A stretch of DNA of 64,000 nucleotides from a bacterium (GCA_021786315.1 JAJYNN010000002.1:462997-526996), one strand, 5' to 3'; positions 12,107-62,919 are shown, counted from the stretch's first letter. Numbers and translations are program-made. Notes: a model not told the origin generated them from the sequence alone.

Positions 12107-12754
12107 CTACATGAGCTCTTCCATGAATGAGGATACGCCAATGGCCCAGGCTCCTCCCTTTTGCAGTGATGGTGGTGTGTATTTGGGCATAATTTCTTCC
12201 GGGGTTTGCAGGCCCTGGTCGATATAATCTTTCTTCAGGCCTTGGGCTACCCTTTCAATTGCGCTTTCAAAGCTGTCAAACCTCATGACTTTACCTCCGT
12301 AAATCCCGTAGCCGAAGGGGTTGTAGGATTCATGAGGAAGAATTTTGCCTCCGTTAGACTCCTGCATCGCTATGGCAGGAAGCAGACGGTAATCCAGACC
12401 ATAGCGATCAGCAGTTGCAACGAAAGTTTCCCCAAGGCCATAAAGTGGGGATTTGCGGGATTTTAAGTAGTTGTCAATAATTAAGGCCCGGGCATCTCCT
12501 TTACCGATAGTGACTCCGAGAGTATTGTCGTCAATGTTTGCCGGGAGGGCCCGGTAAACTTGGTATGTAGTTCCCCTCGGTGTACCCATATATTGGGGGA
12601 AAGAAAGGTAAACCAGGAAAATTAAGGCAAAAGTGAGGGTGGCAACAGCTGCTAAATACCAGCTGCATGCTAAACCCATATTGGATAGCAAGAATTTCCG
12701 TCCAGTGTCCATCTGCTGGTTATCTAGATTAATGACTTGCCCATTCTTTGTCAA
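12107..12754 (-). CDS. Membrane-anchored lytic-transglycosylase-like protein (paralogue)
   Basis: N-terminal TM; LLPAIAMQESNGGK is SLT-like. Confidence 0.55.
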   Translation of the reverse strand: MTKNGQVINLDNQQMDTGRKFLLSNMGLACSWYLAAVATLTFALIFLVYLSFPQYMGTPRGTTYQVYRALPANIDDNTLGVTIGKGDARALIIDNYLKSRKSPLYGLGETFVATADRYGLDYRLLPAIAMQESNGGKILPHESYNPFGYGIYGGKVMRFDSFESAIERVAQGLKKDYIDQGLQTPEEIMPKYTPPSLQKGGAWAIGVSSFMEELM

Positions 12755-12941
12755 GGAATGCTAAAGATATCAGAATAAATCACTTGTAGAGGGGTTGAGC
12801 TTGAAGATTTTTGGAGCGGGAGACGGGATGATCACTCCTCGCTGCGTTCGGAGTTGAACCTACTTAGCTCTGCGAGATGCGTATATTCCAAATGCGGGTC
12901 TTACTCACAAAAAATCAGCCACAAGGGCCGACATTTTTATG

Positions 12942-13013
12942 AGCGGGAGACGGGATTCGAACCCGCGACATCCTCGTTGGCAACGAGGCACTCTACCACT
13001 GAGTTACTCCCGC
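12942..13013 (-). tRNA. tRNA-Gly (anticodon GCC)
   Basis: RC reads GCGGGAGTAACTCAGTGGTAGAGTGCCTCGTTGCCAACGAGGATGTCGCGGGTTCGAATCCCGTCTCCCGCT. Confidence 0.85.
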
Positions 13014-13181
13014 GAACGTTAGTGAGCGGTGAGCACTTCCGCAGCCAATTTTTGGTTGGCGAGGAGTACTCCCACATTTTGGTGCCGCAGCCTGGAATAG
13101 GGCTACTCGCTAAAGCGAGATCCTGTTCCTGTCTGCTTCAAAATTTGTCTTTGCTGACACAAGGTCAGCACGACAAACTTG

Positions 13182-13254
13182 TGCCGCAGCCTGGAATCGA
13201 ACCCGGATAAGACGCTCTTCAGGCGCCCGCCTTGACCAACTTGGCTACTGCGGC
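13182..13254 (-). tRNA. tRNA-Phe (anticodon GAA)
   Basis: RC reads GCCGCAGTAGCCAAGTTGGTCAAGGCGGGCGCCTGAAGAGCGTC..CCGGGTTCGATTCCAGGCTGCGGCA; one G-A mismatch in the T-stem. Confidence 0.8.
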
Positions 13255-13362
13255 TAGTCTACTAGACGCCAGCAAACGAGGTGTTAAACTTTGTAAACAC
13301 CGAGTTTACTGCGACGATCAAAACTAACCAATTTTATCTAATTAACCTCTGTTATGCAATTG

Positions 13363-13435
13363 TGGGCACTAAGGGACTCGAACCCCTGACATCTACAGTG
13401 TAAATGTAGCGCTCTACCAACTGAGCTAAGTGCCC
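13363..13435 (-). tRNA. tRNA-Val (anticodon TAC)
   Basis: RC reads GGGCACTTAGCTCAGTTGGTAGAGCGCTACATTTACACTGTAGATGTCAGGGGTTCGAGTCCCTTAGTGCCCA. Confidence 0.85.
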
Positions 13436-13488
13436 TCGCTTTGCTCGGTCACTTGCGATAGTTCCGCTACGCGTGTAACTATCTAAAG

Positions 13489-13582
<94 letters not shown>

Positions 13583-13593
13583 TTGGTTGCTTG

Positions 13594-13676
13594 TGCCGAG
13601 GACAGGACTTGAACCTGCACGCCTTTTGGGCACTACCACCTCAAGGTAGCGTGTATACCAGTTTCACCACCTCGGC
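13594..13676 (-). tRNA. tRNA-Leu (anticodon GAG), long variable arm
   Basis: RC reads GCCGAGGTGGTGAAACTGGTATACACGCTACCTTGAGGTGGTAGT..GCAGGTTCAAGTCCTGTCCTCGGCA. Confidence 0.8.
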
Positions 13677-13725
13677 AAGCCTGGATATTGTATCAAAAAT
13701 CACGTTCTATACCAAGTAAGATATG

Positions 13726-15534: not shown

Positions 15535-15705
15535 AATTGGAGATTACACCTTCCACTAACTGGAATGTCAAGAGGTAAAATAGTGCTGTGGGACATGGAT
15601 TAGGGCTACTTTGACTTCGTCAAAGATCCTGTCAAGCTTCGCTTGATCGAACCCGCTTCCTTGTGCCAAGAGCGCGGATTCTCGGTTCAAAAGCACCAAA
15701 TACCA

Positions 15706-15739
15706 AAAATCCAGCCACAAAAGGACTGGATTTTTGCTA
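15706..15739 (-). terminator. Hairpin plus U-tract immediately 3' of tRNA-Gln (also reads as a hairpin plus T5 on the + strand)
   Basis: AAAAATCCAG..loop..CTGGATTTTT stem followed by a T-run. Confidence 0.5.
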
Positions 15740-48076: not shown

Positions 48077-48105
48077 GTGATCCTGTACTTATACCTTTTT
48101 TGCAG

Positions 48106-49133: not shown

Positions 49134-49230
49134 CAAATTCAAAATTTGGGGTTTGCCTCCTAATTTTGAATTTACTCCTGGGTAGTCAGAATCCTCTTTG
49201 GGGTTTACATAATTTTCGCAGAAAATTACA

Positions 49231-49312
49231 GGATCGTTTTGACGAAGTCAAAAGGTAGCCCATTAGACAATGCGTTGTCGCAGGATCGTTTTGACGAAGT
49301 CAAAAGGTAGCC
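49231..49312 (+). repeat. Two direct copies of a 32-nt palindrome-containing unit (CAGGATCGTTTTGACGAAGTCAAAAGGTAGCCC) separated by 18 nt, immediately followed by a mature-like copy of the tRNA-Arg 3' end
   Basis: The two copies are identical; the unit is the same motif family as those downstream of tRNA-Phe and tRNA-Gln. Confidence 0.7.
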
Positions 49313-49382
49313 CTAATCCCTCCGGGCGCGCCACCCTATCTCCTTGCTTCCCAATCCAAAGATAGATTACTATTAAACTGAT

Positions 49383-50597: not shown

Positions 50598-50705
50598 CGA
50601 GTGTTACGAGCGAGGTTAGTGAAGTGGCAGGACCAGTCTGAAAGACTAGCCTACCGCCGAACTAATCCCGCAATAGGAAGTATTTTACCAAATTTTACTT
50701 AAAAT

Positions 50706-54638: not shown

Positions 54639-54698
54639 TCGTGGTGGCTGTAGCTCAGCGGTAGGCTAGTCTTTCAGACTGGTCCTGCCACTTCACTA
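54639..54698 (+). repeat. 26-nt copy of the tRNA-His 5' end (tcG-1 plus acceptor plus D-arm to GCGGTAG) fused to a 34-nt element GCTAGTCTTTCAGACTGGTCCTGCCACTTCACTA, 14 nt upstream of the real tRNA-His
   Basis: Exact identity of 54639..54664 with 54709..54734; the 34-nt element recurs in inverted orientation next to tRNA-Gly(TCC). Confidence 0.7.
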
Positions 54699-54712
54699 CA
54701 TTCCCACTTCGT

Positions 54713-54788
54713 GGTGGCTGTAGCTCAGCGGTAGAGCGCCTGCCTGTGGAGCAGGATGTCGAGGGTTCAACTCCCTTCAGCCACCCCA
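54713..54788 (+). tRNA. tRNA-His (anticodon GTG) with encoded G-1 and encoded CCA
   Basis: G GTGGCTGTAGCTCAGCGGTAGAGCGCCTGCCTGTGGAGCAGGATGTCGAGGGTTCAACTCCCTTCAGCCACCCCA. Confidence 0.85.
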
Positions 54789-62311: not shown

Positions 62312-62919
62312 CTCCTTTATCTAAAAGACATTCTAGAGCTTATAGTTAAAAAAGGAGTGAGCTACATGTAAGAAAAGATTATGATTGCAAAGTAATCTCA
62401 AGTTTTGACCATAACTGCTTCAAATTGGATTTGTTATTTGGGGTGAACTATTATCCGGTTTGACTATGGATGAAGCCAAAGTCGGCAGAGCAAAGAAAAC
62501 CAAAAAAGTAATAATCATAAAAATTAAGAGTCCAACTAAAAACCCAATTTCAAATCCTTGTGTATCAGCCGCTATCATTGGTGGAAATCCGGGGTCGGTT
62601 TTTACATCTGGTGTATCATCTTGAAGCGGGGCGTCCATACAAATTTGTGAAAATTGTCAAACTGCCCCTTTTCACGGCTGTGCCTGTAACAGCGTTAAAA
62701 AGTATGAGTTGTGGAGTTATAGGGCTACCTTCGGCTTCGCCGAACGATCCTGTAATTTCTCTCCGCCAAAAGCGGATCGAAATTATTGACCTATTGCCTA
62801 TAATCCCCGCAGCTCTAACCTTTTGTGGCAGTAACTTTTTGAGAGTCATCTTCGTTCCTTTCAACCGCAATATTAGTCCTTTTTGTTGAAAGAATTACGA
62901 GGGGTGTGTAATAAAAATG

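Follow-up and report, generated by a model that had tools for sequence, protein, structure and literature searches.

The 111 nucleotides that separate the tRNA-Gly(GCC) gene from a second copy of its 3' end are best read as a small non-autonomous mobile insertion into that gene, at its T-loop and 3' end, belonging to a family of such elements in Microgenomates/Daviesbacteria; we put the probability of this reading at about 0.6. The window, by which we mean the whole 64,000-nt stretch of DNA that was analysed, comes from Candidatus Daviesbacteria (Microgenomates, CPR), has a GC content of 42% and carries housekeeping genes; the nearest named homologues of the ORF at 12107-12754 are Daviesbacteria proteins. 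ARAGORN identified 13 tRNA genes in these 64 kb, and partial duplications with small structured inserts are found at six of them. By itself the Gly locus, a decayed copy, is of modest interest; more interesting is the family, with its likely link to GIY-YIG nucleases. Sequences from other genomes are given below by L numbers.

The 16-mer ATCCCGTCTCCCGCTC, which represents tRNA positions 59-74, occurs twice on the minus strand, at 12941-12956 within the gene and again at 12814-12829, and the two copies are identical at all 16 positions. The first-pass annotation had correctly noticed that the tRNA-Gly(GCC) 3' end recurs, but placed the copy at 12823-12838, nine nucleotides too high, and gave the spacer as 103 nt, where we measure 111 nt (12830-12940, minus strand). 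Its description of the surrounding sequence is borne out: the distal 16-mer is followed by CA (12812-12813) and so reads ...GCTCCA where the gene copy reads ...GCTCAT (TCCA against TCAT), and the spacer holds both a terminator-like hairpin with a T-run and a CTCGC...GCGAG inverted repeat (12838-12876). A chance origin of the repeat is excluded: the real sequence has 41 positions at which a 16-mer recurs within 400 nt on its own strand, almost all at tRNA loci, and 20 shuffled versions of the window have none. Nor is the arrangement an assembly artefact, as it is present in identical form in two independent assemblies of the same organism (L032 and L033). The features of the locus are as follows.

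12941-13013, minus strand: intact tRNA-Gly(GCC) gene (ARAGORN), ending at C74, with CA no longer encoded
12941-12956, minus strand: proximal direct repeat, tRNA positions 59-74, ATCCCGTCTCCCGCTC (sequence, shuffle test)
12830-12940, minus strand: inserted element between the repeats, 111 nt, of which ~85 nt are homologous to the L012 element 3' of tRNA-Phe
12909-12940, minus strand: left end of the element, consisting of an A-tract, the hairpin GTCGGCC-CTTGT-GGCTGAT and a T-run (terminator scan)
12854-12889, minus strand: degraded tRNA-like body, with a GGAATATAC...GTAGGTTC stem, a CTC-GCA-GAG hairpin and GGTTCAA (5' half of a T-loop)
12830-12853, minus strand: right end of the element, with hairpin CTCC-GAACGCAGCGA-GGAG (12835-12853) and TGATC (12830-12834), which abuts the distal repeat
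12812-12829, minus strand: distal repeat and CA, the displaced native 3' end, tRNA positions 59-76, ATCCCGTCTCCCGCTCCA (compare the uninterrupted L041 gene)

The gene itself is well formed, with an Rfam tRNA match of 72 bits over 12942-13013. Immediately after C74 comes ATAAAAAT, ahead of the GTCGGCC-CTTGT-GGCTGAT hairpin and its T-run; the consensus scan recognizes these as an intrinsic terminator directly behind tRNA-Gly, with a stem of seven pairs (12932-12914) followed by TTTTTGTGAG. Similar hairpins with a CTTGT loop form the left ends of the elements at tRNA-Phe and tRNA-Gln in the window, of the first element (E1) at tRNA-Gly in L038, and of the element at tRNA-Phe in L063. A linker of ~20 nt leads from the terminator to the tRNA-like block GGAATATACGCATCTCGCAGAGCTAAGTAGGTTCAA (12854-12889), in which GAAUAUAC can pair with GUAGGUUC around the small CUC-GCA-GAG hairpin; the core of the element, CGCATCTCGCAGAGCTAAGYAGGTTCRA, is common, almost exactly, to the L012 element. 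The termini of the element, ATAAAAATG... and ...GGAGTGATC, are unrelated to each other. The CTCGC...GCGAG inverted repeat is probably incidental, because it is not kept in the homologous L012 element. A promoter/terminator consensus scan found no promoter inside the element; against the curated RNA families of Rfam 15, only tRNAs pass the gathering score in the window, and a search at E ≤ 10 of the region 12760-13180 gave nothing but noise far below threshold.

Comparison with relatives shows that the spacer was inserted and does not belong to a fixed tRNA operon structure. In L041 the genes are ordered as in the window (GalU, tRNA cluster, homologue of the 215-aa gene), and the near-identical tRNA-Gly(GCC) gene has an encoded CCA end and no element; it therefore represents an empty site, the uninterrupted configuration for which the first-pass annotation had proposed to search. 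The same annotation had reasoned that a spacer conserved as it stands in distant relatives would be a structural part of the operon. What relatives have instead is the uninterrupted gene (L041), two different elements in series after tRNA-Gly(GCC), each followed by its own copy ending in CCA (L038/L040), or a different arrangement consisting of a partial copy, a GIY-YIG ORF, a variant tRNA-Gly, a 2'-5' RNA ligase-like ORF and then an old remnant (L063/L064). The serial inserts fit a model in which every new insertion enters the intact gene and moves the older ones outward. The 2'-5' RNA ligase-like ORF (2H phosphoesterase; L063 1083-1646), which lies between the variant tRNA-Gly and the old tRNA-Gly remnant, is apparent cargo.

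Two further loci allow interrupted and uninterrupted states to be set side by side. The tRNA-Gln flank CCA|AGTAGGGCA directly follows the gene in L041 and follows the distal copy in L025. At the other end of a gene, in L034/L035, a module variant separates the intact tRNA-Leu gene from a partial copy of 16 nt. The conserved promoter region GGATATTGTAYCAAAAAT, which in the window stands directly before an uninterrupted tRNA-Leu(GAG), here adjoins the partial copy instead of the intact gene. The CCA after the distal copy, which the first-pass annotation treated as a pattern shared with the other loci, is correspondingly the native gene end and fails as a sign of the family, as it is missing at tRNA-Gln in the window and in L004, L012 and L038-Leu, members whose target genes lack an encoded CCA.

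These flanks also bear on a retro-copy origin, in which a reverse transcriptase (RT), using the mature tRNA as primer or template-switch acceptor, would have copied it into cDNA as far as the modified A58; this product, positions 59-76 with CCA, would then have been incorporated beside the gene as the distal 18 nt. Such an origin would suit the distal copies that run exactly from 59 to 76 including CCA at Gly, Phe and Arg in the window and in L025, a length equal to that of retroviral primer-binding sites, as well as the tRNA-derived body of the element. However, CCA is already encoded in the uninterrupted L041 gene and the sequence beyond the distal CCA is the native flank (L041, L025), CCA is missing after the copy in about half of the family members, the copy of L038 E1 reads through A58 to T54, the partial copy at tRNA-His runs 5 nt past the mature 5' end, and there is no RT among the 30 largest ORFs of the window. 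We consider a retro-copy very improbable and, given the L041 and L025 flanks, close to refuted.

The Gly spacer is one of several in the window. Behind tRNA-Phe, tRNA-Arg and tRNA-Gln, the gene runs to C74 and is followed by a terminator-like hairpin, a variable middle, a structured right part and a tRNA copy that starts at position 59:

13080-13180, minus strand: tRNA-Phe locus, with element at 13098-13180 and distal copy of positions 59-74 at 13082-13097, then CA
15585-15739, minus strand: tRNA-Gln(TTG) locus, with full type-A element at 15601-15739
49135-49333, plus strand: tRNA-Arg(TCT) locus, with distal copy at 49316-49331, then CA

At all three loci the right part ends in (A)CAGGATC, a hairpin and GTAGCCCTA, and the order of a full right part is GGTTCRA, hairpin 1, ACAGGATC, hairpin 2 and GTAGCCCTA. 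A pattern search found five CAGGATC-hairpin-GTAGCCCTA modules (type A) in the window, against 0.01 expected. The tRNA-Phe element consists of the terminator and a truncated body ahead of this module; the distal copy at tRNA-Gln(TTG) (15585-15600) has one mismatch and no CCA; and the tRNA-Arg element (49229-49313, plus strand) carries two identical tandem CAGGATC-GTTTTGACGAAGTCAAAAG-GTAGCCC modules 19 nt apart. The tRNA-Arg hairpin GTTTTGACGAAGTCAAAAG is also present in L012, a different genome. An orphan module at 62722-62752 (minus strand), which has its hairpin 1 as well as the motif GGTCAA, is located downstream of a DksA/TraR-like ORF and adjoins no detected tRNA; its flank ATAACTCCACAACTCATAC has no match to any tRNA in the window.

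Further members, all from Microgenomates, were found at tRNA-Glu (L004), tRNA-Trp (L006), tRNA-Leu (L012, identical to L024) and tRNA-Gln (L025), with one more in L029. As strict motif scans of genome and metagenome collections returned only three genome and three metagenome loci beyond chance, the family size is a lower bound. The 3'-side junctions lie in every case between T-loop positions 58 and 59 and after C74, and the same 59-74 repeat junctions are found at Gly, Phe, Arg and Gln in the window and in L004 and L025; the duplication is 16 nt at Gly and ranges from 9 to about 26 nt across the family. In L006, the module lies inside the T-loop of a partial tRNA copy, and the sequence to its left represents the anticodon loop to A58 of its own tRNA. 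Two type-A members, L006 (a GT2 gene) and L029, have cargo ORFs between the terminator and the module. Several members of the family are visibly decayed (L041-Phe, L038-Phe and L029).

The stems of the hairpins covary while the junction motifs are fixed. When pairs were counted by script from the outside inwards, the pairs at levels 2-7 of hairpin 1 were intact in all eight sequences, with two to four types of pair; RNAalifold on a MAFFT alignment recovered only part of hairpin 2, because alignment gaps fell inside stems. Folded as RNA, full right parts reach z-scores of -2.6 to -4.2, and the right part of the Gly element (z = -1.0) folds no better than shuffled sequence.

This pattern of covariation raises the question of a functional structured RNA, in which the region from the body to the CCA tail would be transcribed as an anticodon-less tRNA-like molecule (a decoy, or a processing or regulatory RNA) with the tail kept by selection. 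The invariant junction motifs between covarying hairpins and the folding of full type-A right halves are compatible with it, as are the distal tails, each of which still matches its own tRNA exactly despite acceptor stems that vary from species to species (tRNA-Phe of the window, L012 and L063), and the repeated occurrence of pseudo-tRNA copies with a mini-hairpin instead of the anticodon arm. However, this region is separated from the tRNA promoter by a terminator and the element itself gave no promoter in the scan, the fold of the Gly copy is not significant, the region is absent at tRNA-Gly(GCC) in L041, several members are decayed as noted above, and no Rfam family matches even at E ≤ 10. 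We therefore regard a functional RNA as improbable.

A multiple alignment of the spacers (A2) supports the suggestion of the first-pass annotation that the Gly spacer is an insertion scar and a degraded or different member of the same family, an interpretation that proved largely right. The Gly spacer is collinear with the other spacers up to ...GAGTGATC, which aligns to ...GACAGGATC of the Gln element; the shared parts are the terminator with its CCTTGTG-type loop, the GAAU...GGUUC stem, the triloop hairpin, GGTTCRA, hairpin 1 and GATC. The body at 12835-12889 is collinear with the elements at tRNA-Gln in the window and at tRNA-Phe in L012 and L063. The Gly right end corresponds to hairpin 1 and the ...GATC of the CAGGATC motif, and the element stops where hairpin 2 and GTAGCCCTA would start, both of which are missing. 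Consistent with this, the pattern search found no CAGGATC-hairpin-GTAGCCCTA at the Gly locus, all five window copies being elsewhere, and GAGTGATC stands in place of ACAGGATC. The earlier statement that the CAGGATC/GTAGCCC motif is absent is thus accurate for GTAGCCC only, since GAGTGATC aligns to the ACAGGATC half of the module at the Gln locus.

The closest relative of the Gly element lies behind tRNA-Phe in L012, a syntenic Microgenomates genome (local alignment score 65, equalled in none of 500 shuffles), and related right ends (GGTTCRA, hairpin, GCAAGC-NNN-GCTT) follow tRNA-Phe in L063, tRNA-Leu(GAG) in L038 and tRNA-Gly(CCC) in L069. To judge from these alignments, the Gly element is a true member of a distinct, partly decayed sublineage; the copy is, on the same comparison, either such a sublineage or a deletion derivative without hairpin 2 and GTAGCCCTA. 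Over its full length, the L012 interior aligns with the tRNA-Phe of its own locus (GCCATGATA... to ...GGTTCGA; 0 of 500 shuffles), which makes the body of the Gly/L012 sublineage a decayed copy of tRNA-Phe. For the Gly element, the match to the D-arm of tRNA-Phe is marginal (P about 0.04). As a general rule, the idea that each interior is a decayed copy of its own tRNA was rejected: across 12 loci the rank of the own tRNA was no better than expected, and the relationship is clear only for L012-Phe. This lack of overall similarity between interiors and their own tRNAs, together with the absence of a significant fold in the Gly right part, counts against the insertion model.

Under the insertion model, the ancestral gene would have read ...GCTCCA followed by the present downstream flank, with tRNA-Gly...GCTCCAAAAATCTTCAAGC as the predicted empty site. 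Insertion would have proceeded by cuts, or by a recombination, after C74 and, within the T-loop, between positions 58 and 59. C74 would have been joined to the element's left end, with its intrinsic terminator, and position 59 of the resident gene to its right end, so that 59-74 was duplicated. The enzyme would have been supplied in trans, the best candidate being a small GIY-YIG nuclease of sister genomes. The intact tRNA would now end at C74, its transcript would terminate at the element's own terminator, and the original 18-nt tail with CCA would have been left 111 nt downstream as a fossil. Because the gene lacks an encoded CA, the tRNA would depend on the CCA-adding enzyme for its last two nucleotides.

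The origin of the repeats is the point on which this model and its most serious rival differ. The Gly element carries an L012-type, tRNA-Phe-derived body and yet is flanked by Gly 59-74 repeats, and one and the same 34-mer, GCTAGTCTTTCAGACTGGTCCTGCCACTTCACTA, lies between His repeats in one place and between Gly(TCC) repeats in another. These mismatches between body and repeat favour a target-derived duplication: they suggest that the repeats were made at insertion and that the element moved between tRNA species. Other findings weigh against it. A fixed staggered cut alone is insufficient for duplications of 9 to about 26 nt that often end exactly at the gene terminus, and selection for an intact tRNA must be invoked. 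Whole-gene replacement is implied at some loci at least: the remnant after tRNA-Leu(TAG) in L012 differs from the intact gene at 5 of 17 positions, and the allele whose 3' end this remnant (L012 7144-7236, ATTCCTCTCATCCGCAC) does match is the tRNA-Leu(TAG) of L066 (11659-11742), not the adjacent gene.

The alternative is that the repeats are attL and attR of an integrase- or Campbell-type mini-element, a circle with its own tRNA 59-74 and terminator having recombined with the resident gene within the T-loop or beside it. On this view the element would have brought the proximal 3' end with it, the distal end would be that of the native gene, and the hairpin module would be an arm or core site for a recombinase. 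A direct repeat from the T-loop to the gene end is a classic mark of tRNA-integrating elements, a signature that Williams reportedly described for them in 2002. Identity stops at C74, the last nucleotide that the tRNA needs, as selection on an element-borne copy predicts, and the cargo ORFs of L006 and L029 would also fit. Terminator left ends group by tRNA species across genomes (those at Gln in the window and L038 are near identical, those at Phe in the window and L063 homologous), which is better explained by an element-borne tRNA 3' end or by old, vertically inherited insertions. A large serine recombinase gene also abuts tRNA-Leu(CAG) in L065/L066. However, the Gly element is only 111 nt, no recombinase is found among the 30 largest ORFs of the 64-kb window (Pfam), nothing was found in the viral collection (IMG/VR), and a body with Phe repeats in L012 and Gly repeats in the window, like the 34-mer with two kinds of repeat, is hard to square with an element-borne tRNA segment. 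We judge the integrase-type origin unlikely, and retain it as a serious rival.

The recombinase gene in question encodes 512 aa, overlaps the tRNA-Leu(CAG) 3' end (L065 7277-8879, L066 3586-5188) and lies beside TraG-like genes; it probably belongs to a conventional integrative element of the sister genome.

As to machinery for the insertion model, the window's 30 largest ORFs gave no Pfam match to a recombinase, transposase, RT or GIY-YIG nuclease, for which reason the window copies are considered non-autonomous, and no ORF in the window matches a GIY-YIG sequence motif. In sister genomes, a GIY-YIG ORF has a broken partial tRNA copy on one side and an intact tRNA on the other at five of the seven distinct loci examined (L038/L039, L041, L063/L064, L067 and L069), and a sixth (L068) has a variant arrangement. 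These ORFs are at tRNA-Gly or tRNA-Gln genes, with L038, L063, L067 and L069 at tRNA-Gly:

L038 6160-6490: GIY-YIG ORF locus
L041 7660-8010: GIY-YIG ORF locus
L063 1730-2030: GIY-YIG ORF locus
L067 2400-2810: GIY-YIG ORF locus
L069 2400-2810: GIY-YIG ORF locus
L068 335-640: GIY-YIG ORF locus, variant arrangement

The proteins have 80-84 aa, with 84 aa in L038/L039, and consist of the catalytic domain only, with no recognisable DNA-binding domain; their family comprises at least 503 proteins, the named ones being from Microgenomates lineages. The partial copy is broken in the D-loop in L041 and in the T-loop in L038, L063, L067 and L069, and the stop codon of the ORF is often within the first nucleotides of the intact tRNA 5' end. 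In the partial copies, the anticodon arm is swapped for a GC mini-hairpin (CCCGCC-NNN-GGCGGG), at the position where ORF-less elements have their small triloop hairpin. Judged by this architecture, the GIY-YIG nuclease is the best candidate for the cutting enzyme, its cleavage being putative, and it is plausible that the ORF-less elements are derivatives of GIY-YIG cassettes. More broadly, Microgenomates may host undescribed invaders of tRNA genes, GIY-YIG cassettes and their ORF-less miniatures, which enter D- and T-loops, duplicate the gene end and leave anticodon-less pseudo-tRNA scaffolds with a GC mini-hairpin, the Gly element being a decayed ORF-less member; we offer this wider proposal tentatively and at somewhat below even odds.

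Two loci in the window have a comparable arrangement at the 5' end. tRNA-His (54644-54713, plus strand) and tRNA-Gly(TCC) (50599-50671, minus strand) each have a copy of their first 21 nt (...GGTAG) in front of them, followed by the identical 34-mer GCTAGTCTTTCAGACTGGTCCTGCCACTTCACTA and then ~15 variable nt up to the intact gene. At tRNA-His the copy also takes in 5 nt ahead of the mature 5' end, so that upstream sequence is duplicated as well. Both look like an ORF-less version of the GIY-YIG arrangement of relatives.

Several other explanations were considered and rejected. A guide-RNA or CRISPR-like reading (a scaffold with a 17-nt tRNA-matching spacer) has no associated protein gene, and the copy is contiguous with native flank (L041 against L025); an apparent array in the viral contig L046 is a coding repeat without hairpins. 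Insertion of IS200/IS605 type 3' of TTCRA predicts no duplication and like hairpins at both ends, neither of which is seen, and for IS91 or rolling-circle insertion at GTTC the junction is 2 nt off. A T-loop intron or split tRNA is at odds with the intact upstream gene, and removal of the module yields no full tRNA at the orphan 62722-62752 or in L006. Known ribozymes or RNA families are excluded by the lack of an Rfam match, and a phage origin by IMG/VR scans that gave nothing real.

Each of the known systems with which we compared the family shares features with it and fails at least one defining feature. tRNA-targeting integrative elements, and integrase-less att-flanked (CIME-like) remnants, likewise occupy the 3' side of a tRNA gene between direct repeats from the T-loop to the end, keep the gene intact with the displaced native end as a remnant, and have cargo ORFs, here in some relatives. 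In contrast to them, the present family measures only 80-180 nt, lacks an integrase, combines one body with different tRNA repeats, includes 5'-end duplications (D-loop to position 1) and has a hairpin-rich right end with covarying stems. Miniature elements of the MITE type and PATEs of IS200/IS605 are similarly small, non-coding and present in many, diverged copies per genome with hairpins near both ends; unlike these, our elements have no terminal inverted repeats, are confined strictly to tRNA gene ends, make a long variable duplication instead of one of 2-10 bp or none, and have hairpins that differ between ends and between copies. tRNA-derived SINEs, which insert by target-primed reverse transcription, likewise have a body derived from a tRNA, a 3' end that is precise and structured, a 5' part that varies or is truncated, and target duplications of variable length (9-26 nt), but differ in that the host here is bacterial, an A-tail is lacking, the left end is a terminator and no RT is found among the 30 largest ORFs of the window.

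GIY-YIG homing cassettes resemble the family in using tRNA genes as conserved targets, and the sister-genome ORFs of 80-84 aa sit in tRNA genes at D- and T-loop breaks with an intact tRNA beside a partial copy. The displacement of a gene end is known from homing endonuclease genes of fungal mitochondria. The differences are that the Gly element has no ORF, the sister proteins consist of the catalytic domain only, and partial target duplication replaces the usual intron or intein solution. One free-standing GIY-YIG homing endonuclease, SegB of phage T4, is located in a tRNA cluster (PMC2330249).

CPR genomes are ~1 Mb in size and are thought to be poor in mobile DNA. Full-text literature searching turned up no account of elements of this kind in CPR bacteria. 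Should the family prove real and active, it would show that a selfish element needs no intron to persist within single-copy, essential tRNA genes, since it restores the end of the gene and brings a terminator with it. The family would then also account for the ending of most tRNA genes here at C74 without CCA: position 74 is C in all 13 tRNA genes of the window, a full CCA is encoded only by Val(GAC) and His, and C74 in 10 of 10 CCA-less genes is far from chance (~0.21^10), a pattern that would be explained if many of these genes had been hit by like insertions. If true, the model would further provide a candidate DNA nuclease with tRNA-gene specificity and account for assembly breaks and tRNA-cluster rearrangements in such genomes. 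For annotation, fossil tails should not be taken for tRNA fragments, guides or CRISPR-like spacers.

Some minor observations concern other tRNA genes. The 10-mer ACAGGATCAC is found at 48077-48086 (minus strand), immediately 5' of tRNA-Leu(TAA) in the 28-nt spacer after tRNA-Pro, and once elsewhere in the window; it may be a module remnant or a chance match. The contigs of many relatives end inside the Leu-Leu-Val-Phe-Gly tRNA cluster, and in some relatives this cluster is inverted relative to the 215-aa gene (L034/L036 compared with window positions 12107-13700).
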